The notes beneath the pieces were generated by a model that saw only the letters and a program-made list of their open reading frames with translations, ran no database searches and was not told the DNA's origin. Made by a program: the position numbers and the translations under genes. A stretch of DNA of 61,858 bases, taken from the IMG/VR virus record IMGVR_UViG_3300042901_000051, positions 1-61,858 of that record. One strand, given 5' to 3'. This document shows positions 42,537 through 61,772 of this stretch, piece after piece. Source of the stretch: a virus (Duplodnaviria; Caudoviricetes). Every line of letters begins with the position of its first letter. Within the stretch, counting starts at the first letter, position 1.

Positions 42537-42895
42537 TGGCGGACTGTACTCCCTAAAGTGTCAAAAAGTCAAGTGTGGGGGACTTTGAAAACCCTCATCG
42601 TCAAAAAGGGCGCCCCCACAAAAAAATTATATACCCCCCGGGGGTAGGGGAGGTAAACAAAATGAAGGGGGGGGGGGGGGTTAGTGCATACTAACTTATT
42701 AGAACGTCAAAAAATTAATATTGTTTGTGCGGATTAGTGTGTAGTGGGATGGGACCCGACACATAACGCTAAGGCGGACTCCCCCGTACGGTGGGGTGCG
42801 CTGTGGCAACAACTTGATCCGCGATTGGGGCTAGGAATTCACTAGGTATGAGGGAAGCGTGTTTGCTTGCCTCGCTCGGTGCGATTCGATTCGAG

Positions 42896-42910
42896 TTAAA
42901 CCGAGTTTAA
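42896..42910. repeat. Palindrome copy 1 TTAAAC-CGA-GTTTAA
   Basis: Read directly; upstream of the RBS of the 42937 gene. Confidence 0.9.
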
Positions 42911-42936
42911 TTCAACTCAACAGGAGATGTGCAATC

Positions 42937-43599
42937 ATGGCTAAAAACGCCAAGAAAGAAGTTGCAGTAAAGAGCCCACGCGTAGTTCGTGTCCCACAGT
43001 TTTCAAAAATGTCCGATGCGGTTGCAAGTACTGCGCGTGTCAAGAAGTTGACCGATAGTGCTAATGCGTTGGTCAACGCGCACAATGCCGAAGATGTAGC
43101 AGGAGATGCGGTTAGTGCCGCGCGTCTAAACTTCTTTGCAGAGTGTAAGCAGTCTTATGGTTCCAAGTTCCATGACGATAAGACTGTGCGCTTACAGCCC
43201 AAGGTTATATTTTACAAAGCGCACTATGCATCAAAAGGTTTGAATGTAACAGTATCAATCAATGGCTCGCGTGGTGAGTTAAAAGTTGACGCCATTGATG
43301 CATCACAAGCGGATCGCATCAAGTCTGAAACTCCCAATGCGGGAACTCGTTGGAATAAGTTTCTTGCATGGTGCGTTGATGAAGTAGCAGGCAAACACGC
43401 GGACAAAGATCCGAACAAAAGACAGTCTGGAACTAAGAACAAAAAGACTGTACAAGAGATTGTCCAAGATCATGGGCAAAGATGTTATAACGCGTGCTAC
43501 AAGAACGATCTCAAGCAGGCAAGCGTTGAACTGCAAGCATGGGCGACCAAGTGGTTCAAGTCTAAGGTCAAGTACGCAGTACCCGCAGGTTCTAAGTAA
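42937..43599 (+). CDS. Hypothetical early protein (220 aa)
   Basis: AGGAG RBS before ATG 42937; followed by terminator. Confidence 0.75.
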   Translation: MAKNAKKEVAVKSPRVVRVPQFSKMSDAVASTARVKKLTDSANALVNAHNAEDVAGDAVSAARLNFFAECKQSYGSKFHDDKTVRLQPKVIFYKAHYASKGLNVTVSINGSRGELKVDAIDASQADRIKSETPNAGTRWNKFLAWCVDEVAGKHADKDPNKRQSGTKNKKTVQEIVQDHGQRCYNACYKNDLKQASVELQAWATKWFKSKVKYAVPAGSK

Positions 43600-43615
43600 T
43601 TAGACAATGCACTTC

Positions 43616-43650
43616 ACCCCGCAGGGCTTCGGCTCTGCGGGGTTTTTTTT
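43616..43650 (+). terminator. Rho-independent terminator
   Basis: ACCCCGCAGGGC-TTCG-GCTCTGCGGGGT then T tract. Confidence 0.9.
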
Positions 43651-43694
43651 CGCCCGCATCACCCGAATCCGCCAATTCGACACCTCATGGTCAG

Positions 43695-43709
43695 TTAAAC
43701 TCGGTTTAA
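43695..43709. repeat. Palindrome copy 2 (reverse loop TCG)
   Basis: agTTAAAC-TCG-GTTTAAct. Confidence 0.9.
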
Positions 43710-43913
43710 CTCGCACCAACACATTCCCCATCTCGCACCCAACACCTTCTCCCCCTGCCAATTTGATGCCAGTGACAAGAGGGCGGCGTCGGCAACGGCA
43801 CTTATCCACAGCAACACATCAAAAACAGCCCAAACCCTTACCGCATAACGCTTTGCGGACTGCTCATTTTTTAACCACTTCGCAACTTTCTAGGCGTGGC
43901 GCGGTTTGTACAC

Positions 43914-44346
43914 AATGTCCAAACGCAAAAAAACTTTTGCACATTCAACTTTGGCTTAACCATGCGGGTTTGCGGGTCGAATGTTCAAATGTTCCAATGT
44001 ACAAAAGAAAATAGAGAGAAGTCAGAAAAAGGTCTGCTTATCCCCCCATCATGCTTTTTCTTATTTTTTGGCGCTCTCTCTATAAATCGTTTGTACATTT
44101 GCACATTTGCACATTCAACCCATTTTCCCCTTGCAAATCAAACACTTATCGAATGTACAAAAACTTTTTTCCCGCCATCACTTTTTGTACATTGGAACAT
44201 TTACAACTCCCCCAATTCTTTTACATCTGCCTTTACACATTTGCACAAACCAATCCCCATGCGCCATCAGAGAATGTTCAAATGTACCAATGTACAAATA
44301 CAATAAATCCCATCTGCGTCAAATACTTTGAATGTGTCAATGTACA
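43914..44346. repeat. Array of ~16 AATGTNCA-type 8-mers in tandem, oppositely oriented groups (candidate origin or packaging site)
   Basis: Triplets at 43980-44003, 44092-44115 (reverse) and 44273-44296; pairs at 44186-44201 and 44331-44346; singles at 43914, 43938, 44152, 44234. Confidence 0.75.
44136..44148 (+). promoter_or_regulatory. IHF-binding consensus
   Basis: AATCAAACACTTA matches WATCAANNNNTTR, in the middle of the 8-mer array. Confidence 0.5.
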
Positions 44347-44365
44347 AAAATACTTGTCAAATATA

Positions 44366-44394
44366 TTGTGTTGTTGTCTAATTTATGATATACT
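44366..44394 (+). promoter_or_regulatory. Sigma70-like early promoter (extended -10)
   Basis: TTGTGT-17 nt-TATACT with TG one base upstream of -10. Confidence 0.55.
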
Positions 44395-44426
44395 CTCCCC
44401 TCGGGGGTAGTCCGACAAAACTTCCG

Positions 44427-44439
44427 CGCTCTTTAACAA
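44427..44439 (+). promoter_or_regulatory. boxA antitermination element
   Basis: CGCTCTTTAACAA matches the boxA consensus GCTCTTTAACA, ~30 nt after the predicted start. Confidence 0.7.
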
Positions 44440-44460
44440 CCAAGCAGTACAAAAGCCCAC

Positions 44461-44475
44461 TTAAACCGAGTTTAA
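44461..44475. repeat. Palindrome copy 3
   Basis: TTAAAC-CGA-GTTTAA overlapping an alternative palindrome CCGAGT-TTA-ACTCGG (44466-44480). Confidence 0.9.
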
Positions 44476-44812
44476 CTCGGAACTAAAGTTGGGTGCAGAG
44501 TAGGCGTATCTTGCAAATCGCAAACACGGACTTCAAGCCGTGAATAAGGTGATGCGTAGGTAAGCGGGGACAAAGAATAGGTGGCACACAAAAGCCCGAC
44601 CCGACTTACACAAACATTGCCAAGCAAAGTAAACCTGATGACGAGGAACTCCCTGCGTTACAAGCGATGTCAAGTAGCAGTATCTCTGCGGGTAAGAATT
44701 AGACACGACCCCGAAATCCCCACGACCAACTTCCCACATCCTGAGTCAAATTCATAAAGGCTTATCTGTGCGGTGCGAGGTTGCGGGTTCTTTTTGATCG
44801 TTGCAACTCGAC

Positions 44813-44827
44813 TTAAACCGAGTTTAA
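44813..44827. repeat. Palindrome copy 4
   Basis: gacTTAAAC-CGA-GTTTAAgtc. Confidence 0.9.
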
Positions 44828-45116
44828 GTCACTCCGTTGTCATGCCTACTAATTCCTTATCCCTGCCTGAACCTTTCGGAAACCCCGACTGCAACAAAAC
44901 AGCAGAAGGCAAAAGCCGCAGAAGCGGCAAGCGGTGAGTATTCACCGCCGAATAGGTTGGCGGCGTGGTGGTTTGTGGTTCATCTCCTGTCCATTAAGCA
45001 GACCCCCATGCATAAGACCAATCTCTTCGGCGGTGTGTATTTGTCCAAAATGTCCTAATTTTTGTTTTTAGATTTTTAGGACACACACCATTCAACATCT
45101 TTACAGGAGAGTAAAA

Positions 45117-45320
45117 ATGAAATGTGAAACAGCAAGTTGTAAAGGCGTAGTAACCCCTGCCCGTCAAGCGGCAGGGTATGCAGTATGTAAAACCTGTGGT
45201 GAAAGGAAAGCCCGTATGGTCAAGTGGACAGTCGGTATCCCGTATGGCAAGGGTGCGTACCAATTGATCTACGACCCCGAAGAACTGAAGATGACCAATC
45301 AGAAAGAGGTGCGTAAATGA
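45117..45320 (+). CDS. Small zinc-finger protein
   Basis: CETASC...CKTCG; AGGAG RBS. Confidence 0.7.
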   Translation: MKCETASCKGVVTPARQAAGYAVCKTCGERKARMVKWTVGIPYGKGAYQLIYDPEELKMTNQKEVRK

Positions 45321-45520
45321 CTAAAAAGAAATTGACAGACATGAACCACGAGGAAGCGTTCTTCTACATTCTCGCCTGCTCCAAGGTGTACTTTGATTAC
45401 GCCAATGACGAGGGGGAAGACTTCAACCCAAAGACTGCGCGGGGAAGGAAGATCATTCACTACGCAGAGTACCTTCACCACTTGGAACAACTAAGCGAAA
45501 AACAAGGAGTACCACTATGA
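45317..45520 (+). CDS. Hypothetical early protein
   Basis: ATGA overlap, GAGG RBS. Confidence 0.65.
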   Translation: MTKKKLTDMNHEEAFFYILACSKVYFDYANDEGEDFNPKTARGRKIIHYAEYLHHLEQLSEKQGVPL

Positions 45521-45678
45521 ACAATAAAGAACTTGAAGTATTGAAACAAAGACTAGCCGCAGTTAAACCGAGTTTAACTGTCCCGTTCGGGAAACCACAA
45601 CCAACCCAACCGAGACCGACCATGGCACGCATCATGCAGTCATGGACTGTCCAAGATTGGAGAGAGGCAAAGAAATGA
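45517..45678 (+). CDS. Hypothetical 53 aa protein (not in ORF track)
   Basis: AAGGAG RBS, ATGA overlaps at both ends; contains palindrome copy 5. Confidence 0.55.
   Translation: MNNKELEVLKQRLAAVKPSLTVPFGKPQPTQPRPTMARIMQSWTVQDWREAKK
45563..45577. repeat. Palindrome copy 5
   Basis: cagTTAAAC-CGA-GTTTAActg. Confidence 0.9.
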
Positions 45679-45770
45679 GAATCTTTGGATATGTACTAAT
45701 ACTTGGCTTGACCGGTTACTTGATATCTAACTCTACTGTCAACTTGTTGATAGGAAAGGGACTACTATGA
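45675..45770 (+). CDS. 31 aa hydrophobic mini-protein
   Basis: MRIFGYVLILGLTGYLI...; ATGA overlaps at both ends. Confidence 0.5.
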   Translation: MRIFGYVLILGLTGYLISNSTVNLLIGKGLL

Positions 45771-46027
45771 GAATCAACCCAACACAACCAATAAACCCAA
45801 TCTCGCCTGAGTTACCCAAGAAATCCAATGTGGGGGTAAGGCTGTTTGAGTTTGCCTCTGATGTGGAGAAACACATAGGTGATGTGGTGCATTTCAACAA
45901 GAAGCCCTGCATCATCGAGCGCATCGGGGAGTTGGTGACCATCGTCACAATGAACGAGCGCAAGTACACCTTCAGCGTGCTACCCCATCAGATCAATTGC
46001 GTCATACAGAGAGGGGGAAAGAAATGA
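45767..46027 (+). CDS. Hypothetical early protein
   Basis: 86 aa, coupled. Confidence 0.65.
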   Translation: MRINPTQPINPISPELPKKSNVGVRLFEFASDVEKHIGDVVHFNKKPCIIERIGELVTIVTMNERKYTFSVLPHQINCVIQRGGKK

Positions 46028-46137
46028 GTGAGATAGCCGAATTTCTCAGGGCATTGAACGGAGCGTTAGGGCTGATAGCCATAGCGTTTTGTGTGTACTT
46101 CTTGGCGTGCATTTTATCGGGGGGAGATGACAAATGA
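46024..46137 (+). CDS. 37 aa membrane mini-protein
   Basis: ALGLIAIAFCVYFLACIL TM; ATGA overlaps at both ends. Confidence 0.55.
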   Translation: MSEIAEFLRALNGALGLIAIAFCVYFLACILSGGDDK

Positions 46138-46346
46138 GAAAGCAACTTCGTTTTAGTTGGGTCACTAATGTAACCACAACGGCGGGGCATATAGCCACAA
46201 GCCTTATACCTAGCGACACATTCACTAGGAACTTTATCAACAAGCACATAGGCGTAATGGCGGGGTGCTACGGATTTGATCCGTCGTATCTACAAGGCAA
46301 GGCGTTTAACAATCTACCAATCAGTATCAAAGGAGCAAACAAATGA
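46134..46346 (+). CDS. Hypothetical early protein
   Basis: GGAG RBS, coupled. Confidence 0.55.
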   Translation: MRKQLRFSWVTNVTTTAGHIATSLIPSDTFTRNFINKHIGVMAGCYGFDPSYLQGKAFNNLPISIKGANK

Positions 46347-46507
46347 AAACTAATTGGTGGTATGAGTCAGGCTTGGCTGCTCAGGCAGCACAAGAGTTGG
46401 TGTGGTTTGTTGTACTTGTGTTTGTGGGTATTGGTGTAGTGATCTTCTTTGATATCAGAAAGGAAAAGAAAAATGAACAACGAAAGAAAGACAATACAAG
46501 TTGGTGA
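46343..46507 (+). CDS. 54 aa membrane mini-protein
   Basis: AAGGAG RBS; LVWFVVLVFVGIGVVIFF TM followed by basic tail. Confidence 0.55.
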   Translation: MKTNWWYESGLAAQAAQELVWFVVLVFVGIGVVIFFDIRKEKKNEQRKKDNTSW

Positions 46508-46745
46508 TCGAGTCAGTTGGCGTGGTGCGTGGGGCAGAGACTTACCCCGCATTGCGACAGTTGTAGCCATGGAGTTGTGCGAACAACCTCGTATGAAATA
46601 CGGCATATCAACCAACAAGATCTTTTATGTAGACAAAGATCGCACAGTATTTACGCTCGACAACGGCTCTTGGGCGTATGGGTTTCAAATTGAGCCGACT
46701 TATTCCTATGAGGAATTAACTAACCAAGAAGGAGTATCAGCATGA
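46473..46745 (+). CDS. Hypothetical protein (SH3/KOW-like start)
   Basis: IQVGDRVSWRG; likely start 46473. Confidence 0.65.
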   Translation: MNNERKTIQVGDRVSWRGAWGRDLPRIATVVAMELCEQPRMKYGISTNKIFYVDKDRTVFTLDNGSWAYGFQIEPTYSYEELTNQEGVSA

Positions 46746-47203
46746 GAACAAAAACCAAAACAACTACCGCAATCATTCATGCCCTGAAAGAGGGTAAGTC
46801 AGTAGAAGAGATTGCCAAACGAGTTGGTGTAACGAAGCAACGAGTCTATCAGGTTCGTCATGAAGTCAAACAACAAGCAAAGGAGGAAGTCCGTGGTTAT
46901 GTTCGCAAGACACCGAAGCACCCCGAGAAGTTACAGAAGGTCAAGCCGTATGTACGAGGGGCAAAGAAACCGAGCAAGTCTGATTGGATGCCGACTCAGG
47001 AACAGATTGCGGCAAGCGATGTGTTAGCGAGAGCAAGCAGGGCAATTGGAGAGCATAAGCGGATGCACAATGAGTATGTGTATTCTAAATTAAATGAAGC
47101 AGTTGCGAAGAACAACGACTTGTTCAATGAAGTGAAAGATCAACAAGCAATCATTAGATACCTTGAAGGTCTTGTCGTTCGTCTTGCTAACAAATCCAAT
47201 TAA
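46742..47203 (+). CDS. Helix-turn-helix protein
   Basis: GKSVEEIAKRVGVTKQRVYQV HTH; C-terminal coiled coil. Confidence 0.75.
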   Translation: MRTKTKTTTAIIHALKEGKSVEEIAKRVGVTKQRVYQVRHEVKQQAKEEVRGYVRKTPKHPEKLQKVKPYVRGAKKPSKSDWMPTQEQIAASDVLARASRAIGEHKRMHNEYVYSKLNEAVAKNNDLFNEVKDQQAIIRYLEGLVVRLANKSN

Positions 47204-47214
47204 ACCGAGTTTAA
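47200..47214. repeat. Palindrome copy 6
   Basis: aaTTAAAC-CGA-GTTTAAtt; contains the stop codon of the HTH gene. Confidence 0.9.
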
Positions 47215-47240
47215 TTCAATAAAAAGAAAGGAAATACACC

Positions 47241-48326
47241 ATGATTGATATGCAAACAGTTTCACTAGCCGAGGCTAAACAGTCTATCCTCGCACTTGGC
47301 GCAGAAGTCCCCATCTTTCTATGCGGTGAGCCAGGCATCGGTAAGACCGCCATGGGTCAAGAAGTTGCTACGGAGTTGGGCTATGAGTTTGCGCCCATAG
47401 ACTGTGCGACTTTGGAGTTGGGTGACCTTGGTACGCCTGATCAAGACAAGCAGAATGGTTGCACAAACTTTCTGCCCAACGCACGGTTTGGTATTCACAA
47501 GGGTAAAGATATTGTGATGTTGCTAGACGAGATCACGAAGTCTCCCCGCCCTGTGATGAATATGCTCATGCCAACATTCAATGATCGGCGTTTGTATGAC
47601 AAGTATTTGACTAAGCCCTCTGTGGTATTTGCGACGGGCAATCTAAGCACAGACGGAGTTGGTGACAATATGCCGCCGCACTTCATATCACGCATAGACT
47701 TCTTGTATGTGCAAAAGCCTAATGCAGAAGAATGGTGTGATTGGGGTCGCAGTAATCAAATGAATCCAACCCTCATGGCGTGGGTTATTAAGAATCCGCA
47801 TTGTATGCAGTCGTACACCGACTTCAAGGATAAGGATATCAATCCAAAAGCACCGCCGAATCCGTACATATACTTCCCGCAATTGCCAAGAGCGTCATTC
47901 GTTTGCCCCCGTTCATTGGCACGAGCATCTAAGGTACTTGATAGGCGTGATGTCCTGACTGAGAAAGTTGTCCATGCAAACCTTGCAGGTGTCTTAGGTC
48001 GTAGCGCGGCGGCTGATATACAGGCGTACTCAACTGTGGAGAAAGATCTTGAAGATTGGGCAGTCATTGAGCGCGATCCCATGGGCGTCAAAGTGCCTGA
48101 TAATCCAATCGCTGTATGTATTCAGATTCAGCAGGCGATGATGCGTGCGGACAAGAACAACCTAACCGCAATCGTCAAGTATGTGAAGCGTCTACCCCGC
48201 GAGTCGCAAGCGTTGTTTGGTACTAACCTCTACAAGATCAAAGACAAACGGGATATTGCAATACGCAATACAGAGTTTGCTAAGTGGGCAATTGATAATC
48301 ATTGGATGTTGCCTGATGTTAAGTAG
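47241..48326 (+). CDS. MoxR-like AAA+ ATPase
   Basis: GEPGIGKT, MLLDEITK, FATGN, SR arginine finger, CPRS sensor. Confidence 0.88.
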   Translation: MIDMQTVSLAEAKQSILALGAEVPIFLCGEPGIGKTAMGQEVATELGYEFAPIDCATLELGDLGTPDQDKQNGCTNFLPNARFGIHKGKDIVMLLDEITKSPRPVMNMLMPTFNDRRLYDKYLTKPSVVFATGNLSTDGVGDNMPPHFISRIDFLYVQKPNAEEWCDWGRSNQMNPTLMAWVIKNPHCMQSYTDFKDKDINPKAPPNPYIYFPQLPRASFVCPRSLARASKVLDRRDVLTEKVVHANLAGVLGRSAAADIQAYSTVEKDLEDWAVIERDPMGVKVPDNPIAVCIQIQQAMMRADKNNLTAIVKYVKRLPRESQALFGTNLYKIKDKRDIAIRNTEFAKWAIDNHWMLPDVK

Positions 48327-48331
48327 TCGAG

Positions 48332-48346
48332 TTAAACCGAGTTTAA
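48332..48346. repeat. Palindrome copy 7
   Basis: Between AAA stop and AAAGGAG RBS. Confidence 0.9.
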
Positions 48347-48362
48347 TTGGAAAGGAGTATGT

Positions 48363-48527
48363 ATGAAGACCATACAAATTGCGGTGGAAACTGATGCGAT
48401 TGAAAAGACAATCGAACAGTTAGATGAAGACAATATGCCAATCCTCATGATCGAAGATGATCGTGATGGGGATAGTGGTGGATGGATATTTACGATAGGA
48501 GAAAGTAATGAGCAAACTAACACCTGA
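48363..48527 (+). CDS. 54 aa acidic protein (not in ORF track)
   Basis: AAAGGAG RBS; 14 D/E versus 3 K/R. Confidence 0.55.
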   Translation: MKTIQIAVETDAIEKTIEQLDEDNMPILMIEDDRDGDSGGWIFTIGESNEQTNT

Positions 48528-49803
48528 GCAGAGAGTATCCAAATCACGAGTTGCTTTGATGACGCATCCGAAATTCTGTGCGTTGTCGGGCATCATGCTG
48601 ATGGGTAAAGTGACTGTCGAAGAAGGGTGGGGAACTGCCTGTACTGATGGTCGCAACGAGTGGTACGACCCCGAATTCGTCGCTGAACTAGATGATTTGG
48701 AGTTGAACTTTGTGGTCGCCCACGAGAACTTCCACAAGATGTTTCAGCATGGCATTGTGTGGAATAGATTGTTTGAAGAAGATCCTGAGACTGCGGGTGT
48801 AGCCTGCGATGCAGTTATCAATCTAATGATTGAGGATTGGGGTAAGCCTGTTGGTAACTTTGAGCGCGTTGTAAAGTTTCCGACAATCGGTGGCATCTAT
48901 GACGAGAAGTACCGCAACATGGATGCAGGGCAAGTCTATCGTCTGTTGAAAGCAAACAAACCTCCTCCGCCGCCAAGAAGGGGCAATCAAGGTCAGGGGC
49001 AGGGACAAGGTCAAGGTCAACCGCAAGGTGGAACTGAACCGCCAAGCAATCCGAAGGCTAATACGACAAACCCGTCATCGTTTGATAACCACGACAGGAT
49101 CACGGAAACCAAGCAGTTGTCGCAAGAAGAGCAAGACAAGTTGAAGAATCAGATCGACCAAGCGATACGCCAAGGTCAGATGCTATCTAAAGATATGTGC
49201 AAAAAGCATGGTATCGGCAGAGGGGATTCCGAGTTGAACTTGAGCGAGATGCTTGAGCCGTATGTCGATTGGCGTCAGGTATTGCGGGACTTTGTGAAGT
49301 CAACACTTGCGGGTAAAGACTTATCTACCTATGCACGCCCGAACAAGAGGCTGAAACATCTTGGTATATACATGCCTAGCACATACAGCGAATCTGCATC
49401 TAGGATTGTTGGCGCTACCGATGTGTCGGGTTCTGTGGATCGTGAGTTGAGCCAAGAGTTTTTCTCGCAGTTGGAATCTATACGCCAAGAGTGCAATCCC
49501 GAATTCATGGATGTATTGGCATGGGATACGGCGGTGGAATCTCACAAACGCTTTGAGCGTGACTGTGGGGAAACCATGCTCAATGTCACTATGCGTGGCG
49601 GTGGTGGTACAGACCCTGCCTGTGTGTTTGACTATCTGCGGAGTGAGCGAGATGCAGTCCCGCCTGATGCGATTGTCATGCTGACAGACGGATATGTGCC
49701 AAGTTGGGGAGATGTCACTGGCATCCCTTGTCCTGTTTTGTGGGTAATTGTTGGTGACAGTAAAGCCATGCCCACGCATGGTCAAGTTGTTTATGCGAAG
49801 TAA
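48508..49803 (+). CDS. Metallopeptidase-vWA fusion (DUF2201-like)
   Basis: TACTDG, HENFH zincin motif, Q/G linker, DVSGS MIDAS, GGGGTD, LTDGY. Confidence 0.85.
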   Translation: MSKLTPEQRVSKSRVALMTHPKFCALSGIMLMGKVTVEEGWGTACTDGRNEWYDPEFVAELDDLELNFVVAHENFHKMFQHGIVWNRLFEEDPETAGVACDAVINLMIEDWGKPVGNFERVVKFPTIGGIYDEKYRNMDAGQVYRLLKANKPPPPPRRGNQGQGQGQGQGQPQGGTEPPSNPKANTTNPSSFDNHDRITETKQLSQEEQDKLKNQIDQAIRQGQMLSKDMCKKHGIGRGDSELNLSEMLEPYVDWRQVLRDFVKSTLAGKDLSTYARPNKRLKHLGIYMPSTYSESASRIVGATDVSGSVDRELSQEFFSQLESIRQECNPEFMDVLAWDTAVESHKRFERDCGETMLNVTMRGGGGTDPACVFDYLRSERDAVPPDAIVMLTDGYVPSWGDVTGIPCPVLWVIVGDSKAMPTHGQVVYAK

Positions 49804-49809
49804 GTCGAG

Positions 49810-49824
49810 TTAAACCGAGTTTAA
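49810..49824. repeat. Palindrome copy 8
   Basis: Between vWA stop and GAAAGGAG RBS. Confidence 0.9.
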
Positions 49825-49841
49825 TTGAAAGGAGATTTACC

Positions 49842-50708
49842 ATGAATCAAGAAGTCACAAGCATTTCATCAAGCGCAGTATTGGTAGACTTAAACATTGC
49901 AACATGGACTGCACGCAAGAACGACAAGCGAGTGTCCGAGGAGATTGATGTAGCCAAAGGTACGAAGGCACGGGCGGGTAACTTCCACAAGAAGTTGTTC
50001 GCAGGCAATTCCACGCTAGAAGAGATGCAGAAGTTTGTAACTCAAGTGCGTACCTATCACTACAACAATACCCTGCCTTGGTCGGATTCAGGCACACGCT
50101 TGTTGGTAATGGGTCGCTTCATGGAGTACAACACAAAGATGCGAGAGTTTGAGGTTCAGTTTGAGGATCTCAAGACCAAGTTTCTTTCAAATTACAACGA
50201 CATGGTAAGTGCCGCTGCATTTACACTTGCTGAGTTGTTTAATCGTGAAGACTATCCTAATCCCGATGTAATCACGCATAAGTTTTACTTCAAGTATGAG
50301 TACGCACCTGTACCGCAATCGGGTGACTTCCGAATTGACATAGGTAACGAAGGCATACAAGAACTTGTTGGTCGGTATGAGTCTCAGTTTGAAACTCGAG
50401 TTAAGACCGCGATGCAAGATGCGTGGACTCGTTTGCATGATTGTTTATCTCGTATGAGTGAGCGTCTTGATTACAAGAACGAGAACGACAAGAAAATCTT
50501 CCGCGATTCTTTGGTGGACAACGCCATAGAACTTGTTGATATGCTCAAGTGCATGAACATTACGAATGATCCTGAACTAGAAAAGTCCCGCAAGCAATTG
50601 GAACAAGCCATGTTCGGTGTATCTGCTCGTGAACTGCGCGAGAGTATAGACATTCGCAAAGATGTGAAGTCTCAGGTTGACGAGATCCTAAGTCGTATGA
50701 GTATTTAA
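49842..50708 (+). CDS. Helical protein (possibly DUF3150-like) linked to AAA/vWA pair
   Basis: WTARKND, TLPWSDSGTRLL, FNREDYP, FRDSLV, NITNDPELE. Confidence 0.6.
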   Translation: MNQEVTSISSSAVLVDLNIATWTARKNDKRVSEEIDVAKGTKARAGNFHKKLFAGNSTLEEMQKFVTQVRTYHYNNTLPWSDSGTRLLVMGRFMEYNTKMREFEVQFEDLKTKFLSNYNDMVSAAAFTLAELFNREDYPNPDVITHKFYFKYEYAPVPQSGDFRIDIGNEGIQELVGRYESQFETRVKTAMQDAWTRLHDCLSRMSERLDYKNENDKKIFRDSLVDNAIELVDMLKCMNITNDPELEKSRKQLEQAMFGVSARELRESIDIRKDVKSQVDEILSRMSI

Positions 50709-50713
50709 TTGAG

Positions 50714-50728
50714 TTAAACCAAGTTTAA
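50714..50728. repeat. Palindrome copy 9 (loop CAA)
   Basis: Between stop and GAAAGGAG RBS. Confidence 0.85.
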
Positions 50729-50744
50729 TTGAAAGGAGTTAGAT

Positions 50745-51581
50745 ATGTTGACATATGATGTTCCTACTATCATGTGCTATGAGCACGCTGATACTTTTAT
50801 GAATAAAGTTGCGCCTATCCGTGATCAAGGCGGAATACGCCCTCTCGGGCAACGGCGTTATTGGAAAGATCGATGGGTGAAGTTTAACAATGACGTTGTT
50901 AAACACACAATTGTAGTCGGTAATTACAACGCACCTTGCGTGTCGTTTTACCCTGATAACCGAATTGAATTTAGCCATGGAGTTTATCAACTTACTACAA
51001 GGCAGATTATCAACGCTATGTTTCGCCCTAGATTTAGATGCGTGTATGCCCACAATAGTAAATGGTATCTGCGTGATATGGTGAAGCAAATTCAATACCC
51101 TATAACGCGTGGCGACTCGTTGGTGCTTCACTATACTAAAACAGAACAGGGGGTTGATTACGTATTCAAAGGGGAACTTCCGACAGAACAAAAACCTTAT
51201 GTAATTAAGGAAGTGTACGCACCAATTCTTAAGCAGTACAAAGAGTTTCTAAAGTATGTCGAAATAATGAACAAGTTGGCAGGTGGTGCATATGAGAGAG
51301 ATGGGTTTCTTAAAGACATTGTTAACAAGGTAGACAACTCAGAAATTGATTCTTTATTAACTTCTGTTGCCAATCACACGATGGAATCTGCACCGGAAGA
51401 GTTTGCATCTGCGTTTGATGCGCTACTCTGTAAATGCGCTAGGATCAAATACTATTCACGAGGAGAGTATATATGCACAACCCAAAGCATGAAGAAGTTT
51501 ATGTATGAGTGGATCAAAACAAAGCATAGTGACGCCATATACGAGATGCGTGATGTACCAAATTTAACAATCGTTCGATAA
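50745..51581 (+). CDS. Hypothetical protein
   Basis: 278 aa with strong RBS. Confidence 0.75.
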   Translation: MLTYDVPTIMCYEHADTFMNKVAPIRDQGGIRPLGQRRYWKDRWVKFNNDVVKHTIVVGNYNAPCVSFYPDNRIEFSHGVYQLTTRQIINAMFRPRFRCVYAHNSKWYLRDMVKQIQYPITRGDSLVLHYTKTEQGVDYVFKGELPTEQKPYVIKEVYAPILKQYKEFLKYVEIMNKLAGGAYERDGFLKDIVNKVDNSEIDSLLTSVANHTMESAPEEFASAFDALLCKCARIKYYSRGEYICTTQSMKKFMYEWIKTKHSDAIYEMRDVPNLTIVR

Positions 51582-51599
51582 CTAAGAAAGGAAAATGCC

Positions 51600-52505
51600 A
51601 TGCAAACTGAAGCCAAACTACACCCTAAACTACAAATTGCCGTTGACCGCCTAAACAAACGGTACTCTGATATTACAGTTAAAAAATATCGCACAAAAGA
51701 TTGTCGAACGGGGGGACAAAACGAAGACGGAAGTCTTACCACAAAAGAAATGATTGTATCCGTAGAACTTTATACAGGCATATGGGAGAAATCATTTGCT
51801 AAATTATCTGTTGATCATACCTATACTCCGCCCACAGATCATACATTTGTGGTTGAGTCTGATCGCATCAACAATCAACGAAGCCCTAAAAATGAAAAGC
51901 GTACAGTCAAAGACAAAATCATAGTGAAACTTGTTGATGAGTTTGTTCGCCCGTTTACTTATGCAGATCGTGCTAAAGATATATTGAAAGCAGGACACAG
52001 TGCATTGTATTGGCTTGATCGTGAAGTTGAAAGAAAATGTAGCGAAATTTGGAAAAGGATGTGCAACAACGGGTGGTCAGATGTTATTCTTGATTTGATT
52101 GACGGTAGAATTGAATGCGCCACTCCTGAATTACGTCAAAAAGCACAGGAACTTCGTGAAGAACAACAAAGATCTAGATGGATTTCATCTAACTGCAATG
52201 ATGATAAAGGCTCTGCCATGCAAGTAATTGCGTTTCAAATCGGCGGTGATAAGTGGGTACTAAATGTTTATGGTAATGGGCAAGCACCAATTGTTACGCA
52301 GTACGATTCATTCGATGACTTACCTGACTTTATTCAGCAGAAGGTGGCGTTGTTGCGTATCGCACCACACAAGGAGTTGCTAGAAGACATTGGGGTTAAA
52401 GTTGAAGCAAACTCTTATTTCCTGTATGGTTCTGAGTTACAAGTCTTGAGAAAGCCAAATGACTCCGGAGAAGAAAGTAAAGATCAAGGTAACAAAACTA
52501 CTTGA
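51600..52505 (+). CDS. Hypothetical protein
   Basis: 301 aa; C-terminal DDLPDFIQQKVALL...IG motif. Confidence 0.75.
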   Translation: MQTEAKLHPKLQIAVDRLNKRYSDITVKKYRTKDCRTGGQNEDGSLTTKEMIVSVELYTGIWEKSFAKLSVDHTYTPPTDHTFVVESDRINNQRSPKNEKRTVKDKIIVKLVDEFVRPFTYADRAKDILKAGHSALYWLDREVERKCSEIWKRMCNNGWSDVILDLIDGRIECATPELRQKAQELREEQQRSRWISSNCNDDKGSAMQVIAFQIGGDKWVLNVYGNGQAPIVTQYDSFDDLPDFIQQKVALLRIAPHKELLEDIGVKVEANSYFLYGSELQVLRKPNDSGEESKDQGNKTT

Positions 52506-52761
52506 TAGTTTTGGAGCCTATTGGTTCTATCCCGTAATGTCCGGTTACGGTTCTAGTGGAATACCCGATATAGTTGCTTGTTTTCGGGGGCGGTTCATAG
52601 CCATTGAATGTAAGGCTACGCCCAAAGATCAGCCGACTGCGTTGCAATATAAGAACTTGGCGTCTATCAAAGACCAAGGGGGTATCGCCGTTGTTATAAA
52701 TGTAGAAAATGTGAAGGAGTTAGAAGATGTCATCAACAAAATTATTGACAGTAGACTTTGA
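52459..52761 (+). CDS. VRR-NUC nuclease (Holliday junction resolvase-like)
   Basis: MTPEKKVK, GIPDI, FIAIECKA, TALQ. Confidence 0.85.
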   Translation: MTPEKKVKIKVTKLLDSFGAYWFYPVMSGYGSSGIPDIVACFRGRFIAIECKATPKDQPTALQYKNLASIKDQGGIAVVINVENVKELEDVINKIIDSRL

Positions 52762-54547
52762 GACTTACTACGATAAAGACTATTCCCTAAGCAAGATGAC
52801 GACTGAAGAGTATGTTCGGTCAGATTTATTTGAAGTAATTGGTGTAGCAGTAAAAGAAAACAACGGTGACACGCGTTGGTTTAGTGGTACTCATAAAGAT
52901 ATTGAAGAGTGGCTAACGCAATTTGATTGGGCGCACAGCCTAGTCCTTGCACATAATACGATGTTCGATGCGGCTATTTTAGTGTGGCGATTTGGCATCG
53001 TGCCTTTGGGTTGGATTGATACCATGTCTATGGGTCAAGCACTTCTACCCGCAACACAGTCAAAGTCATTGGCAAAACTTGCCGAGTTATATGGCATTGG
53101 CATGAAAGGCTTGGAAGTTGGTAGTGCTATTGGTAAACACAAGCGCGACTTCTCTAAATCAGAATTGAAACAGTATGGGTTGTATTGCTGTAACGATGTA
53201 GAACTAACCTACAAGTTGTTTAAGAAGATGTTGCCTGACTTTCCAAGGCACGAACTAAAGTTGATCGACCTTACGATACGGATGTTTGCCGAACCCGTTC
53301 TCAGGGTAGATGTTGACTTGCTCACTAAACATTTAGTGCAGATCAAGGACTTCAAAGATAAATTGCTTACCGCGTCTGGGCTGGATACTGAAACACTCAT
53401 GTCTAACAACAAGTTTGCAGATTGGTTGCGAAGCAGGGGAGTAGAACCGCCAACGAAAGTTAGCCCGACCACAGGCAAAGAAACATTGGCATTTGCTAAA
53501 ACAGATAAAGAATTCCTAGCCCTACAAGCCGATGAAGATGTAGCGGTGCAGACTGCGGTGGCGGCTAGGCTTGGGGTCAAATCTACACTTGAAGAAACAC
53601 GCACAGAGAGGTTTATAGGCATAGGGCTTAGAGGTCATTTACCGGTTCCCCTTAAATACTATGCCGCACATACAGGTAGGTGGGGTGGTTCAGATAGCCT
53701 CAATCTTCAGAATCTGCCGTCGAGAACAGGATCTTCAGCCCTCAAGAACTCCATATGCGCACCCGAAGGATATGTAATTATTGATGCCGACTCCGCACAG
53801 ATAGAGGCTCGGATGCTTGCGTGGTTAGCGGGTCAGCAGGATATTGTGGGAGCGTTCTCCACAGGACAAGATGTTTACCGCATCATGGCTTCAGCCATAT
53901 ACAGCAAACCCGAAGAAGATATATCGAAAGACGAAAGGTTCATTGGTAAGACCGTTGTGCTAGGTTGTGGCTATGGTATGGGTGCAGAAAAGTTTAAGAA
54001 TATGTTGGCACTACAAAAGGTTAAGTTGGAAAAACATGAAGCCGAACGGATCATTCAGATCTATCGCGAGCGTAACTTTAAGATCAAGCAGTTGTGGTAC
54101 GAAGGTCAAAACGCACTGCCCGCAATACTGAAGAATAAGAACGCCCCTCTTGGTCAGCACAGGGTCTTGATGGTTGAAGGCGCAAGAGGAATCCGGCTCC
54201 CGTCAGGACTCCATGTAAAATACAACAACTTGAGACCAACCGCAGACGGTGGATTTGAATACGAGGCTAGAAAGAACGAGTGGGTAAAAATCTACGGTGG
54301 TAAGGTTATAGAGAATGTAACCCAAGCGTTAGCCCGTATTGTTATTGGTCAGCAGATGCTCAAAATAGCCGAGAAGTATCGGGTAGTGCTAACTGTACAT
54401 GATGCAATTGCTTGTATTGCGCCTATCGGAGAACAACACTTGGCAAAAGAATATGTAGAATCTTGTATGAGATGGACACCCGAATGGGCAACAGGCTTAC
54501 CTCTGAACTGCGAGTCAGGTGTAGGCGCAAACTATGGCGAATGTTAA
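52727..54547 (+). CDS. polA: DNA polymerase family A with 3'-5' exonuclease
   Basis: DFET, HNTMFD, YCCND exo motifs; HTGRW, NLQN, DSAQIEAR (A), KTVVLGCGYG (B), VHD (C). Confidence 0.93.
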   Translation: MSSTKLLTVDFETYYDKDYSLSKMTTEEYVRSDLFEVIGVAVKENNGDTRWFSGTHKDIEEWLTQFDWAHSLVLAHNTMFDAAILVWRFGIVPLGWIDTMSMGQALLPATQSKSLAKLAELYGIGMKGLEVGSAIGKHKRDFSKSELKQYGLYCCNDVELTYKLFKKMLPDFPRHELKLIDLTIRMFAEPVLRVDVDLLTKHLVQIKDFKDKLLTASGLDTETLMSNNKFADWLRSRGVEPPTKVSPTTGKETLAFAKTDKEFLALQADEDVAVQTAVAARLGVKSTLEETRTERFIGIGLRGHLPVPLKYYAAHTGRWGGSDSLNLQNLPSRTGSSALKNSICAPEGYVIIDADSAQIEARMLAWLAGQQDIVGAFSTGQDVYRIMASAIYSKPEEDISKDERFIGKTVVLGCGYGMGAEKFKNMLALQKVKLEKHEAERIIQIYRERNFKIKQLWYEGQNALPAILKNKNAPLGQHRVLMVEGARGIRLPSGLHVKYNNLRPTADGGFEYEARKNEWVKIYGGKVIENVTQALARIVIGQQMLKIAEKYRVVLTVHDAIACIAPIGEQHLAKEYVESCMRWTPEWATGLPLNCESGVGANYGEC

Positions 54548-54558
54548 TTTAATAGGAG

Positions 54559-54741
54559 ATGTTTATGGTTAAACTTGATTATGCACCACACTACTTAGAG
54601 GCTAAACGGCAGTTAGAAGAAACCTACCAACTAATTTTGAAGAATCAATTTAGTGAAGCGTCGGGTCAGATTGAATTTGCTATTGTAGAATTGCGCATGA
54701 TGAAAGCCGCAATCAACTCAAATATACCCGATGCCGAATAA
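54559..54741 (+). CDS. Hypothetical protein
   Basis: 60 aa helical; start may be 54565. Confidence 0.55.
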   Translation: MFMVKLDYAPHYLEAKRQLEETYQLILKNQFSEASGQIEFAIVELRMMKAAINSNIPDAE

Positions 54742-55405
54742 ATCTCCCTCTTGGTCGTACTCTAGTATCACTCTATTTCACCAATGTCCAAAGAAGTATC
54801 ACCACTTACGGGTGGTGAAGGACTATGTTGAACCAAAGACAGAGCAACTTCTTTATGGAGAAGAACTCCATAAGGCAGCCGAACTCTATATCAAAGACGG
54901 AACCCCGTTGCCTGAACAATTCTCGTTCATCAAATCCCAACTAGATACCTTAAACGCAATAGACGGTCAGAAACTTTGTGAGTACAAAATGGGGTTGACC
55001 GATAGCGGAAAGCCCTGCGAATTCTTTGACCAACAAGTTTGGTGGCGGGGCATTGCCGACCTCATAATTATCAAAGATAAGACCGCTTATATCATTGACT
55101 ACAAGACGGGTAGGAACGCCAAGTATGCCGACTCTAAACAATTAGACTTTCTAGCGATGGCTACTTTTGCCCACTTCCCCGAAGTCGAACGGGTGAAGGG
55201 TGCGTTGATGTTTGTTGTGTCAAAAGATTTTGTTAAAAAAGACTATGTGCGTGGCGATTTTCTCGGACTTCTGCGCGACGCTTTGTACCTCTATGTCCCC
55301 CTAGAATCCGCTTATACACAGGATGTTTGGAACCCCAAACCTAACTTCACTTGCCGAAACTATTGTGCGGTGCATACTTGCATTCACAACGGAAGGCATT
55401 CATAA
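54731..55405 (+). CDS. PD-(D/E)XK exonuclease (Cas4/RecB-like)
   Basis: WSYS..CP, RGIAD, IDYKTG, QL, terminal C..C..C. Confidence 0.85.
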   Translation: MPNKSPSWSYSSITLFHQCPKKYHHLRVVKDYVEPKTEQLLYGEELHKAAELYIKDGTPLPEQFSFIKSQLDTLNAIDGQKLCEYKMGLTDSGKPCEFFDQQVWWRGIADLIIIKDKTAYIIDYKTGRNAKYADSKQLDFLAMATFAHFPEVERVKGALMFVVSKDFVKKDYVRGDFLGLLRDALYLYVPLESAYTQDVWNPKPNFTCRNYCAVHTCIHNGRHS

Positions 55406-55411
55406 TCTGAG

Positions 55412-55426
55412 TTAAACCCAGTTTAA
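55412..55426. repeat. Palindrome copy 10 (loop CCA)
   Basis: gagTTAAAC-CCA-GTTTAActc between exonuclease and HNH-like genes. Confidence 0.85.
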
Positions 55427-55441
55427 CTCGACAACTTCTTT

Positions 55442-55696
55442 ATGCCTTATGTAAACAAATCCCGCCCCTACAAGAAAGAGTATAAGCAACAACTTGAGAG
55501 GGGCGAACACGAAAACCGCATGGAACGTCAGCGTGCTAGGCGCACCCTCGACAAGAAGGGCGTTGACCGCAAAGGCAAAGATGTGGCTCATGTAAAACCC
55601 CTATCAAAAGGGGGTAGCAACAAGGATGGCATTCGTTTAGAATCTCCATCCAAGAACAGAAGTTTTAAGCGAAACAAAGATAGTTCAGTTAAGTAG
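55442..55696 (+). CDS. Small HNH-like protein
   Basis: DVAHVKPLSKGGSN...NRSF. Confidence 0.65.
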   Translation: MPYVNKSRPYKKEYKQQLERGEHENRMERQRARRTLDKKGVDRKGKDVAHVKPLSKGGSNKDGIRLESPSKNRSFKRNKDSSVK

Positions 55697-55768
55697 TACG
55701 CAGTAAAACACTATTACAAAAGGCGAAGTGGGATTCCACATTCGCCTGTAAACGCATCTGTAAACACC

Positions 55769-57319: not shown

Positions 57320-57344
57320 CAATGTCAAATTTAGGTTTTAATAT
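57316..57344 (+). promoter_or_regulatory. Sigma70 promoter with palindrome over -35
   Basis: TTGACA-17 nt-TAATAT; TTGACA-A-TGTCAA perfect inverted repeat. Confidence 0.6.
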
Positions 57345-57374
57345 GGTTGAAAATAAAAAGAAAGGATGCACACC

Positions 57375-58666: not shown

Positions 58667-58679
58667 TCAACTCAAGGGT

Positions 58680-58700
58680 GCGGGGGGTGATCCCCCGCTT
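58680..58700 (+). terminator. GC-rich hairpin after SSB-like gene (weak terminator/stabiliser)
   Basis: GCGGGGGG-TGA-TCCCCCGC with only TT. Confidence 0.4.
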
Positions 58701-58706
58701 ACGGCT

Positions 58707-58949: not shown

Positions 58950-58959
58950 GTGACGCGAC

Positions 58960-61761: not shown

Positions 61762-61772
61762 AGGAGAACGCC

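Follow-up and report, generated by a model that had tools for sequence, protein, structure and literature searches.

The repressor of phiC31, a temperate phage whose early region is transcribed by host polymerase and whose repressor gene is known, binds conserved inverted repeats (CIRs) of 17 bp, about 18 of which are spread over that region, for the most part between genes. In RNA, the RNase III sites of T7 are irregular stems of about 20 bp whose sequences differ from one another and which a host enzyme cleaves, while N proteins read the boxB loop of lambda-type nut sites. The stoperators of Cluster A phages are described as numerous, mostly outside promoters, oriented, subcluster-specific and co-evolving with the repressor (PMC6550527); the 13-bp site is asymmetric, and the repressor binds it as a monomer (PMC9283540). 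Hairpins used by the T7-like virion RNA polymerase on which N4 depends are characterised by a G:C-closed GNA triloop on the template strand with specific purines at –11 and –8 (PMC4496689), and the PeSLs of T4-like phages have been proposed as points of modular exchange (PMC4122927). Here we compare these systems with a set of palindromes in the early arm of a lake phage and its relatives.

Palindromes in the early arm

The window, meaning the whole 61,858-nt stretch of DNA analysed, is the genome of a lake phage, an entire virus record that is 98% complete. A motif scan of its 61.9 kb found ten exact matches to TTAAACNNNGTTTAA, all within 42896–55426, with a chance expectation of 0.01 and ten copies reached in 0 of 100 shuffled sequences. 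The motif, TTAAAC-NNN-GTTTAA, is a 15-base palindrome with both arms invariant at all ten sites. Its loop is CGA at seven sites and TCG (43695), CAA and CCA at one each, and this asymmetric loop faces along transcription in nine of the ten copies. Allowing up to two mismatches added just five matches (6244, 8964, 14684, 18470 and 58899), with 5.36 in all expected by chance; at this chance level the scan shows no halo of degenerate copies, and the late arm is without a copy. The scan, which the original prediction had called for, thereby reproduces its ten positions, loop tally, invariant arms and empty late arm. Among the population variants listed, none lies inside the ten cores. The sites and neighbouring elements are as follows.

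42896..42910, + strand: site 1, loop CGA, 26 nt upstream of the ATG (42937) of the first early gene
42937..43599, + strand: first early gene ('gene A', 220 aa), a unit of its own from site 1 to the terminator
43616..43651, + strand: strong intrinsic terminator, 12-bp stem with nine G-C pairs, T8
43695..43709, – strand: site 2, the sole inverted copy, loop TCG on the + strand
44386..44394, + strand: extended –10-like TGaTATACT, in a block identical in three phages
44428..44439, + strand: boxA-like GCTCTTTAACAA, found letter for letter in the rrnB boxA oligonucleotide of E. coli
44461..44475, + strand: site 3, 21 nt 3′ of the exact rrn-type boxA
44813..44827, + strand: site 4, within a conserved non-coding leader
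45563..45577, + strand: site 5, within a predicted 53-aa ORF (45517–45678)
47200..47214, + strand: site 6, containing the TAA stop of the HTH153 gene, with the AAA ATPase ATG 26 nt downstream
48332..48346, + strand: site 7, with the AAA ATPase stop 5 nt before and the next ATG 16 nt after
49810..49824, + strand: site 8, between the DUF2201 and DUF3150 genes
50714..50728, + strand: site 9, loop CAA, between the DUF3150 gene and a 278-aa gene
55412..55426, + strand: site 10, loop CCA, between a PD-(D/E)XK exonuclease gene and a basic 84-aa gene

Several of these elements recur in related loci. A GGAAC-type ortholog of site 1 precedes the same first early gene in L005 and L007, which also keep the terminator that ends about 45 nt before site 2. 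The TGaTATACT element, a conserved extended –10 about 60 nt upstream of site 3, is probably an early promoter, and the boxA is conserved with one or two changes in L005/L008 and L007. Site 5, read in the only open frame, would be translated as K-P-S-L. Sites 6–10 lie between a stop codon and the following start, which agrees with the five copies so placed in the original prediction. The core shares bases with the stop at site 6 and begins 5–6 nt after it at sites 7–10, the next start codon is 15–26 nt past the core, and the three predicted GAGTTAAACCRAGTTTAATTG(G)AAAGGAG strings are those at sites 7–9.

Lineage-specific palindromes in related phages

Across 74 sources (the window plus 73 related IMG/VR loci), 60 have at least five copies of a palindrome of their own in the same early arm. 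The relatives carry 5–21 copies per genome; shuffled sequences yielded at most 2–4 copies of any palindrome. Their palindromes include GGAAC-N3-GTTCC, CTAACA-N1-3-TGTTAG and CCTCACA-N-TGTGAGG, and the cultured cyanophage Pag-Yong1 carries GTTCAG-N-CTGAAC 21 times. Conservation in relatives, for which the original prediction had proposed a scan, fails for the letters (the exact window motif occurs in 0 of 15 related loci) and holds for the arrangement. L005–L008 have GGAAC-N3-GTTCC at junctions orthologous to those of the window, the ortholog of site 7 being L005 9968. The suggestion of an undescribed cis system is thus upheld on a far broader scale, the same junctions bearing different palindromes in different relatives. 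The sets switch in concert: phage pairs whose AAA ATPases are 91–95% identical bear differing motifs, and no genome among those compared has a mixed set. Clustering recurs in complete relatives, with nine of nine sites packed into 9 kb of the 63.6-kb G001 and a similar pattern in four other records.

The centre of the palindrome varies within as well as between lineages. In CTAACA…TGTTAG it has one, two or three bases depending on the phage, and lengths of one and two coexist within single genomes (L050, L052 and L059). At the orthologs of site 10 the loop is CGA in L005, TCA in L007 and, with reversed orientation, TCG in L006. Individual sites also turn over, as L007 13040 is without a window counterpart and L005 11122 lies within DUF2201.

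Position relative to genes and promoters

The sites follow stop codons, and the distance to the next start codon peaks at 8–40 nt. By gene calls that are crude, 287 of 436 sites are intergenic, compared with 23% of random positions, and about a third lie within coding sequence; orthologous sites in related loci make these counts non-independent. Separate sigma-70-like promoters exist, and the palindromes avoid their cores. Among 95 pairs of a site and a predicted sigma-70 promoter, whose geometry depends on the same crude calls, 51 have the site at +30 to +69, 28 at –100 to –51, and a single one in the core zone from –40 to +29, compared with 7.6 under random placement. Certain sites lie where sense transcription should be scarce, either between a strong terminator and a promoter (window site 2; L057 3919) or, in L009, L012 and L014, ahead of the first early promoter.

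Sequence and pairing of arms and flanks

The original prediction held that the flanks change but still pair, and argued from this for an extruded hairpin. Its claim stands for the core-adjacent position, which pairs at nine of the ten window sites through four pair types (GU 4, GC 3, AU 1, CG 1), a count of types matched or passed in 5 of 500 shuffles. For the flanks as a whole it does not stand: pairing is 88% versus 86.2% in shuffles, the observed level was reached in 120 of 500, and a separate flank-shuffle test was not significant (p = 0.30–0.68). With pairing no higher than in shuffles, the argument for extrusion from flank covariation is weak. Two positions out from the core, all ten sites have the same A…T pair. 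The 68 one-mismatch variants comprise 56 non-wobble, six G-T and six A-C changes, 44 of the 68 falling at the outermost position. The arms thus show no G-U tolerance, and compensatory change within a genome is almost absent. Together with the invariance of the arms and the scarcity of flank covariation, this argues for a sequence-specific reader, one that recognises the sequence of the site and not its structure alone. As RNA, all ten window sites are predicted to fold into hairpins (–2.9 to –9.8 kcal/mol) with A+T-rich stems of 6–10 bp; nine adopt the palindrome stem and site 3 favours an alternative fold.

Search for the reader

Two helix-turn-helix proteins were considered and rejected as the reader, HTH153 on the grounds that it does not co-vary with the motif and a 104-aa HTH protein on the grounds that it is 93% identical to its counterpart in L005 despite the different motif there. 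No proteins within the fetched regions group by motif, and covariation with the motif, grouping and fold comparison yielded no reader. Gene A, which has no family membership and no fold match, is a candidate by position only. A 183-aa family of first-gene products has five motif-discriminating columns, three of them within 8 residues, a hint of a reader role that is suggestive only; neither this family nor gene A has a recognisable DNA-binding fold. Among the proteins scanned, which covered little of the late arm, neither an integrase nor an immunity repressor turned up, nor did RNase or RNA-binding families or an identifiable N-like protein.

Comparison with known systems and alternative explanations

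The palindromes resemble Cluster A stoperators (L5, Bxb1) in that a single short site recurs many times within a genome, in lying mostly outside promoters in short intergenic gaps, in one predominant orientation relative to transcription, and in a consensus that varies by lineage, which in Cluster A is described as tracking repressor specificity (PMC6550527). They depart from the asymmetric stoperator (PMC9283540) in being palindromic with a variable centre. Stoperators are also genome-wide, in both arms, and have a cognate repressor, whereas the sites here are restricted to the early arm and all but avoid core promoters, and no repressor was found among the proteins scanned. The CIRs of phiC31 are comparable as many-copy, mostly intergenic inverted repeats of an early region, but phiC31 is temperate and has a known repressor gene, the CIRs have fixed spacing, unlike the variable centre seen here, and they are not known to show a lineage-by-lineage replacement like the one described above.

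We tentatively favour a stoperator-like reading, in which the palindromes may be multi-site DNA targets at which a rapidly evolving phage protein forms a roadblock or insulates. Speaking for it are the non-random confinement to one arm, the lineage specificity, the signs that sequence is read, the sites where sense transcription should be scarce, the spacing from predicted promoters, and the precedent of Cluster A. The main rival, possible though somewhat unlikely, is that they work as stem-loops in early polycistronic mRNAs, the stem sequence being read by a phage RNA-binding protein or endoribonuclease through which each cistron would be cleaved, stabilised or controlled in its translation, much as at the RNase III sites of the T7 early region or with a hairpin reader of the Cas6/Csy4 type. 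It would account for the placement after stops and 8–40 nt before starts, for the 51 pairs 30–69 nt past predicted transcription starts and the lone pair in the core promoter, for loop lengths that are free (3–5 nt, even inside one genome), for loops oriented along transcription and sites confined to a co-directional early arm, and for the predicted folds. Also speaking for RNA are the boxA upstream of site 3, in nut-like order, and a conserved junction in distant relatives at which longer flanks and a T-run make the palindrome an intrinsic terminator. However, the equal numbers of G-T and A-C variants and the near absence of compensatory change do not suit it, and variable loops on invariant stems are the reverse of the pattern at most RNA–protein hairpin sites. 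Also against it are the sites that lie ahead of the first promoter or in the gap from a terminator to the promoter that follows, the third or so that lie in coding sequence on crude gene calls, and the lack of an RNase or RNA-binding family among the scanned proteins; in the GGAAC family, stems of 5 bp would, to judge by their length, make weak hairpins. T7 RNase III sites are likewise hairpins directly upstream of ribosome-binding sites, located in the leader and in the gaps that separate the cistrons of an early operon transcribed by the host, yet the stems here are 5–10 bp, identical within a genome and lineage-specific, and none of the window sites forms an irregular duplex of about 20 bp. 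Lambda nut sites are matched by the order promoter, boxA, hairpin at site 3 and by the strong terminator after the first early gene, but boxA accompanies only one of the ten window sites, the loop is here the variable part, and there are ten sites rather than two. A simpler RNA role, as plain intrinsic terminators or attenuators or as structure-only mRNA stabilisers homogenised by gene conversion, is very improbable. Hairpins after stop codons fit it, as do some relatives in which the palindrome itself, with a T-run, makes up the terminator (17 such 'self' cases). In the window, however, none of the ten sites is among the terminator-like sites of the scan, no T-run follows any of them, their stems are A+T-rich, and canonical G+C-rich terminators adjoin the palindromes as distinct elements. 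A role in structure alone predicts neither invariant arms, nor absence of wobble, nor wholesale switching between close relatives.

Two further alternatives act on DNA. N4-like hairpin promoters, an option raised by the original prediction, would have the palindromes extrude as DNA hairpins for a virion-borne or early phage RNA polymerase. N4 promoters also have a 5–7 bp stem and a G:C-closed 3-nt loop (here 5–9 bp, closed by C:G) in the early region of a podovirus with related replication genes. The replication module here is N4-like, its AAA ATPase matching N4 gp24 homologs of Schitoviridae (22–26% identity, 44 records), and the N-terminal part of the giant virion protein weakly matches the 'virion RNA polymerase' PHROG (E = 3.5e-6), outside the polymerase domain. 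Starts about 8 nt past the stem, extrapolating from the promoters described in PMC4496689, would give short leaders retaining the Shine-Dalgarno sequence. The six frames of the window, however, contain no candidate for PF00940 or a T7-like polymerase, and the giant virion protein has low-complexity sequence and an invariant HExxH where a polymerase domain would sit, no RxxxKx7YG motif or motif B pattern, and a PLxRFG/DarB-like C-terminus. Apart from a very divergent polymerase, which such searches might miss, no phage RNA polymerase is detectable; N4-type promoters are largely refuted on this ground, and we give them hardly any credence. The window loops CGA, CAA and CCA on the + strand read TCG, TTG and TGG on the template strand, not the GNA reported as needed for N4 extrusion (PMC4496689), and the loop flips at an orthologous site. 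The 10–21 sites per genome, which in the window extend over 12.5 kb, contrast with three promoters at the first-injected end of N4; canonical sigma-70-like promoters, which the sites avoid, and boxA are present; and such repeats are missing from EcP1, which is a genuine N4-like phage and encodes polymerases of its own. It is also rather improbable that the palindromes are primarily exchange points between co-infecting relatives, kept uniform by exchange, although cassette boundaries are compatible with the data. Sites flank promoters and terminators on both sides, are gained and lost at junctions, and often lie within about 10–30 bp of the ends of homology blocks shared with L021, L022 and L024; one population contig is without the gene at 48363–48527, its junction adjoining a palindrome. 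Such block ends are expected anyway, since the site sequences differ between the compared phages and the sites stand at gene ends. A length of 13–19 bp is short for homologous exchange, no recombinase specific to the sites was found, the early-arm restriction and the lack of mixed sets are left unexplained, and recombination could be a by-product of any other function. PeSLs are similar as repeated short regulatory motifs at the edges of small variable early genes (PMC4122927), and differ in being composite promoter–terminator units; here no early promoter and stem-loop form one unit, the palindromes standing apart from promoters (1 of 95 pairs) and terminators.

Proposed role

Some observations sit uneasily with a dimer on duplex DNA. 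The same half-sites occur with differing centre lengths, which a hairpin loop accommodates with ease but a rigid dimer only with difficulty; nine of ten window loops are oriented with transcription; and the sites are tightly coupled to translation starts. A classical repressor should also hold at least one core-promoter operator, where only one of the 95 pairs lies. Under the stoperator-like reading that we tentatively favour, each lineage of the clade would have its own form of one recognition site, and the ten palindromes would be the form of the window. A rapidly evolving factor encoded by the phage would recognise the sites by their sequence; most likely it would be a DNA-binding protein that is dimeric or has two-fold symmetry in some other way. 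This factor would occupy double-stranded sites at module boundaries of an early arm transcribed by host polymerase, past stop codons and 30–70 bp downstream or about 50–100 bp upstream of early promoters, and its binding would set up a stoperator-like roadblock that gates or insulates transcription. Such a role would also account for the matching of all copies in a genome and for the switching of specificity between close relatives. The palindrome set points to an undescribed phage-specific control signal, through which the early arm may be shut off or superinfecting relatives excluded.

Genome layout and transcription machinery

The window is an entire IMG/VR virus record of 61,858 bp, rated 98% complete, and is organised as two divergent arms, one on the minus strand (1-42536) and one on the plus strand (42937-61761).

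Main features of the two arms
1-42536, minus strand: large terminase, portal, virion proteins and a giant ORF running past the record end
1-7446, minus strand: the giant virion ORF, cut by the record end and about 60 aa short of its 2544-aa homolog (P0001)
42937-61761, plus strand: small early genes, MoxR-type AAA ATPase, DUF2201 metallopeptidase/VWA protein, DUF3150, family A DNA polymerase, PD-(D/E)XK exonuclease, SNF2 helicase and PrimPol/DUF927 primase

GenBank phages gave no DNA-level match to the window (megablast, blastn), and a tRNA search found none. At the protein level, the sole GenBank matches of the AAA ATPase (22-26% identity, 44 records) were in N4-like Schitoviridae and in the cyanophages Pag-Yong1, MinM2 and Pra-JY27; the annotation of its counterpart in EcP1 cites similarity to N4 gp24, and that of the gene after it similarity to gp25. 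Full-length homologs of the giant ORF have about 2544 aa. Its C-terminus matches PLxRFG/'DarB-like' giant proteins of 60-kb podoviruses (e.g. PEp14, LASTA, PBC5), its middle is of low complexity and carries an invariant HExxH near residue 1466, and its N-terminal residues 158-487 show a weak likeness to the N-terminal part of N4-type virion polymerases. The giant ORF has no T7-type motif B and no match among solved structures, and PF00940 gave zero matches in six frames of the window. Since no phage RNA polymerase was found, the genes of this phage are taken, from sequence, to be transcribed by the host enzyme.

Ten identical palindromes in the early arm

A pattern scan of the window recovered ten TTAAACNNNGTTTAA matches at exactly the positions claimed in the original prediction (sites 1-10: 42896, 43695, 44461, 44813, 45563, 47200, 48332, 49810, 50714 and 55412), where 0.01 would be expected and none of 100 shuffles reached ten. 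Allowing up to two mismatches added only five matches, four in the late arm and one at 58899; shuffles at this tolerance gave 5.36 matches in all, so that the window holds no halo of degenerate copies. The loop inventory likewise agrees with the original prediction (CGA in seven copies; TCG, CAA and CCA in one each). Site 2, with the TCG loop, is a truly inverted copy, as the usual left flank is present on the minus strand, and the asymmetric loop runs 9:1 in the direction of transcription. Among the variants listed for contigs of four further lake DNA runs, none fell inside the ten cores. In three of these four runs, summed contig depth at 48858-49304 exceeded that of adjacent bins 10-15-fold; this interval includes a short GGTCAAGGTCAA-type repeat within the DUF2201 gene, probably common to other organisms.

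Site 1 lies 26 nt upstream of the ATG of the first early gene (gene A, 42937-43599). Sites 2-4 fall within about 1.5 kb (43600-45116) that we read as non-coding. The 'ORFs' there give implausible protein translations; compared with the related loci L005 and L007, nucleotide conservation comes in blocks and the interrupting indels are not multiples of three. Site 5 is within a predicted 53-aa ORF, in the sole frame that the motif does not close. Each of sites 6-10 lies in the gap from a stop codon to the following start.

Features near sites 1-4
43616-43651: strong intrinsic terminator, 3' of the first early gene
44386-44394: extended -10-like TGaTATACT, conserved, within the non-coding stretch
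44428-44439: exact rrn-type boxA GCTCTTTAACAA, 21 nt upstream of site 3

The boxA is kept with one or two changes in three relatives and suggests Nus-factor antitermination of the early operon. Past the extended -10, the boxA and site 3, some 650 nt (44476-45116) are again near-identical in blocks to L005 and L007, with non-triplet indels, and resemble a long structured leader or a non-coding RNA. Rfam gave zero matches to this segment at E <= 1, and over 42000-61858 only a sub-threshold anti-hemB match, on the terminator.

Several other elements were noted. Dense arrays of 8-bp iterons (AATGTNCA, complement TGNACATT) occupy 43900-44380, facing both ways and separated by A- and T-tracts, and are near-identical in L005 and L007; they are likely a replication origin or an operator array, for which a well-conserved 104-aa HTH protein (58635-58949) is a candidate binder. 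The divergent intergenic region 42520-42720 contains four GTCAAAA(A) copies, a G run at about 42667-42681 and a conserved CGGGGGTAGGGG element, which in distant relatives adjoins their first palindrome; one population contig is 5 bases shorter here. Immediately after site 10 lies a gene for a very basic 84-aa protein (55442-55696), conserved to the distant group at 45% and with an HNH-like 'DVAHVKPLSKGG...N' stretch as judged by eye.

Related phages carry different palindromes

The window's own motif was found in none of 15 IMG/VR loci collected via the DUF2201 protein. At junctions orthologous to those of the window, four close relatives (71-76% identity) instead carry GGAAC-(CGA/TCA/TGA/TCG)-GTTCC, for example immediately 3' of the AAA ATPase gene, whose end '...GATGTTAAGTAG' is conserved; L005, L006 and L007 have 9, 5 and 11 such copies, respectively. 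More distant relatives have CCGACA-N3-TGTCGG, CGGACA-NN-TGTCCG or CCGACA-NN-TGTCGG. Alignment of the AAA ATPase extended the collection to 73 loci. With the window this makes 74 sources, of which 60 held five or more copies of a single palindrome with arms of 5 bp; block shuffles of four sequences gave two to four copies at most.

Further palindrome families among the relatives
CTAACA-N1/N2/N3-TGTTAG
ATAACA-N-TGTTAT
CCTCACA-N-TGTGAGG
CTGACA-NN-TGTCAG
GTAGCGT-N-ACGCTAC
AAGCAC-N3-GTGCTT

The cultured cyanophage Pag-Yong1 has 21 GTTCAG-N-CTGAAC copies in 65 kb, most of which follow a stop codon and precede a ribosome-binding site in the early arm. Complete relatives have their sites grouped in a single arm; in one genome (G001), all nine copies lie inside 9 kb of 63.6 kb. 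No such repeat was seen in EcP1, which is genuinely N4-like and has polymerases of its own, and a repeated palindrome was absent from the terminase relative HTVC027P. Phages whose AAA ATPases are 91-95% identical can differ in palindrome, and no mixed set was found in any genome. Copies also occur inside conserved coding sequence. L005 has one in its DUF2201 gene (position 11122), and many loci of the CTAACA type have one at about 10660, within the gene for the AAA ATPase, a placement that seven or more loci share.

Invariant arms and scarcely covarying flanks

Within a genome the palindrome arms are invariant. We counted 68 one-base departures from a genome's own consensus, 44 of them at the outermost position; 56 were non-wobble mismatches, with six G-T and six A-C. 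The original prediction that flanks change and still pair holds only in part, at the core-adjacent pair, which takes four pair types (5 of 500 shuffles reach this count); flank pairing over the ten window sites was 88% against 86.2% in shuffles, a level reached by 120 of 500. Shuffling right flanks among sites gave p = 0.30-0.68 in the window, p >0.9 in the GGAAC group and p = 0.04-0.2 in the distant group. Identical half-sites are separated by one, two or three central bases, and in each of L050, L052 and L059 one-base and two-base centres coexist.

Taken together, the invariant arms, the scant flank covariation and the likeness of all copies within a genome speak against a structure-only element and for a sequence-specific, fast-evolving reader acting in trans. 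With crude gene calls, 287 of 436 unique sites were intergenic, compared with 23% of random positions, and site density, on the same crude calls, peaked 8-40 nt upstream of the next start codon.

Positions relative to promoters and terminators

We compiled 95 pairs of a site and a predicted strong sigma-70-like promoter; as orthologous sites are non-independent, the distribution is to be read as a pattern and not a probability.

Site position relative to the predicted start
-100 to -51: 28/95
-40 to +29: 1/95 (random placement, 7.6)
+30 to +69: 51/95

This geometry excludes classical operators that overlap promoters. A sigma-70 promoter within the motif was also rejected: GTTTAAT in the window resembles a -10 element, and GTTCCAT in the relatives does not. 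Canonical terminators stand apart from the palindromes, which occur to either side of them, so some palindromes fall between a terminator and the next promoter, and in L009, L012 and L014 palindromes precede the first early promoter; neither kind of position is expected to yield much sense RNA. The window sites themselves are not terminators, as the U-tract is absent and separate terminators are present. At one junction in several distant relatives, the palindrome, long flanks and a T-run together form an intrinsic terminator.

Search for the reader

HTH153, a KorA/HTH_23-like protein whose stop codon lies inside site 6, was rejected as the reader since its variation fails to track the motif: the recognition helices of L005, L006 and L007, which share one motif, differ more among themselves than that of the window does from L005. 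The 104-aa HTH protein was rejected too, being 93% identical to its L005 counterpart despite the differing motif. A host REP-like element or host-factor site was considered since GTAG often stands 5' of the palindromes, but the switch of motif between near-identical phages argues against a host reader.

In close pairs of phages with discordant palindromes, no protein grouped by motif in overall identity. Three outliers stood out in the pair L089/L085: the 183-aa product of the first early gene (65%), a protein of 191 aa that faintly matches sigma region 4 (44%) and one of 84 aa (45%). In the 183-aa first-gene family, five columns separate genomes with GGACA from those with CGACA, and three of the five fall within eight residues of a predicted helix; this clustering is a lead and not a finding, with a chance probability of roughly 0.02 from only six sequences. 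Gene A of the window has no Pfam or PHROG family and only unnamed viral clusters in Atlas. Its AF2 model (pLDDT 78.5) had no Foldseek match at E <= 0.001, and its best VIA score (Z = 7.8, helical KaiA) is within noise. The AF2 model of the 183-aa family (pLDDT 70.1) gave no fold match, and profile similarity between it and gene A was undetectable (probability 0.2%).

Possible roles of the palindromes

It is quite possible, if short of probable, that the palindromes are duplex-DNA sites of a two-fold protein, which would act there as a roadblock or insulator. This reading also fits the CIRs of phiC31. The invariant arms, the absence of wobble, the untranscribed positions and the sites in coding sequence all fit duplex DNA, as does the precedent of stoperators (PMC6550527). 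The other surviving reading, plausible though somewhat less likely, is that of single-stranded hairpins, most likely of RNA, recognised by a phage factor that evolves fast and labels or cleaves each cistron junction. In its favour, the central loop varies in length and is oriented with transcription, the sites lie mostly between genes and are coupled to ribosome-binding sites, and at one junction in several distant relatives the palindrome is part of a terminator. There is thus a real, if minority, chance that the palindromes form a native, phage-specific 'operon punctuation' code, a categorically new kind of element. Under a bolder, protein-free variant, each copy, being self-complementary, could base-pair in trans with any other, and this alone would call for identical copies.

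The N4-like hairpin promoters offered in the original prediction are very unlikely, as there is no polymerase, the loops are wrong, the sites are too many and loops are flipped at orthologous sites. With no copy in the late arm, a general role as priming or ssi signals for the PrimPol-type primase was dismissed. Recombination at module boundaries, comparable to that of PeSL (PMC4122927), may be a consequence and not the function.

Implications

Full-text searches, with thin coverage of subscription journals, turned up no account of these repeats, either for Pag-Yong1 or in a paper on HTVC023P-type pelagiphages. We rate the palindromes as belonging with multi-site, lineage-specific regulatory repeats, an already known kind. 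Their co-evolution would be comparable to that of repressor-stoperator, N-nut and polymerase-promoter pairs, although the reader of the palindromes was not found; it would add a new case of concerted co-evolution between one reader and many sites. A hairpin code, if true, would replace the phage RNA polymerase programme in a polymerase-less sister clade of N4-like phages, with a specificity that diversifies between close relatives like immunity systems.

More broadly, one regulatory grammar of 5-21 identical palindromes at early-gene boundaries, with its own 'word' in each lineage, would be common to a large, abundant clade of podoviruses from aquatic habitats, whose members include phages of freshwater lakes, numerous IMG/VR contigs and one cyanophage in culture. 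Such palindromes would provide a simple sequence marker of the early arm and of specificity groups in metagenomic phage genomes. With Pag-Yong1 and relatives in culture, the system is open to testing, and it bears on how early and middle transcription proceeds in N4 relatives without N4 polymerases.
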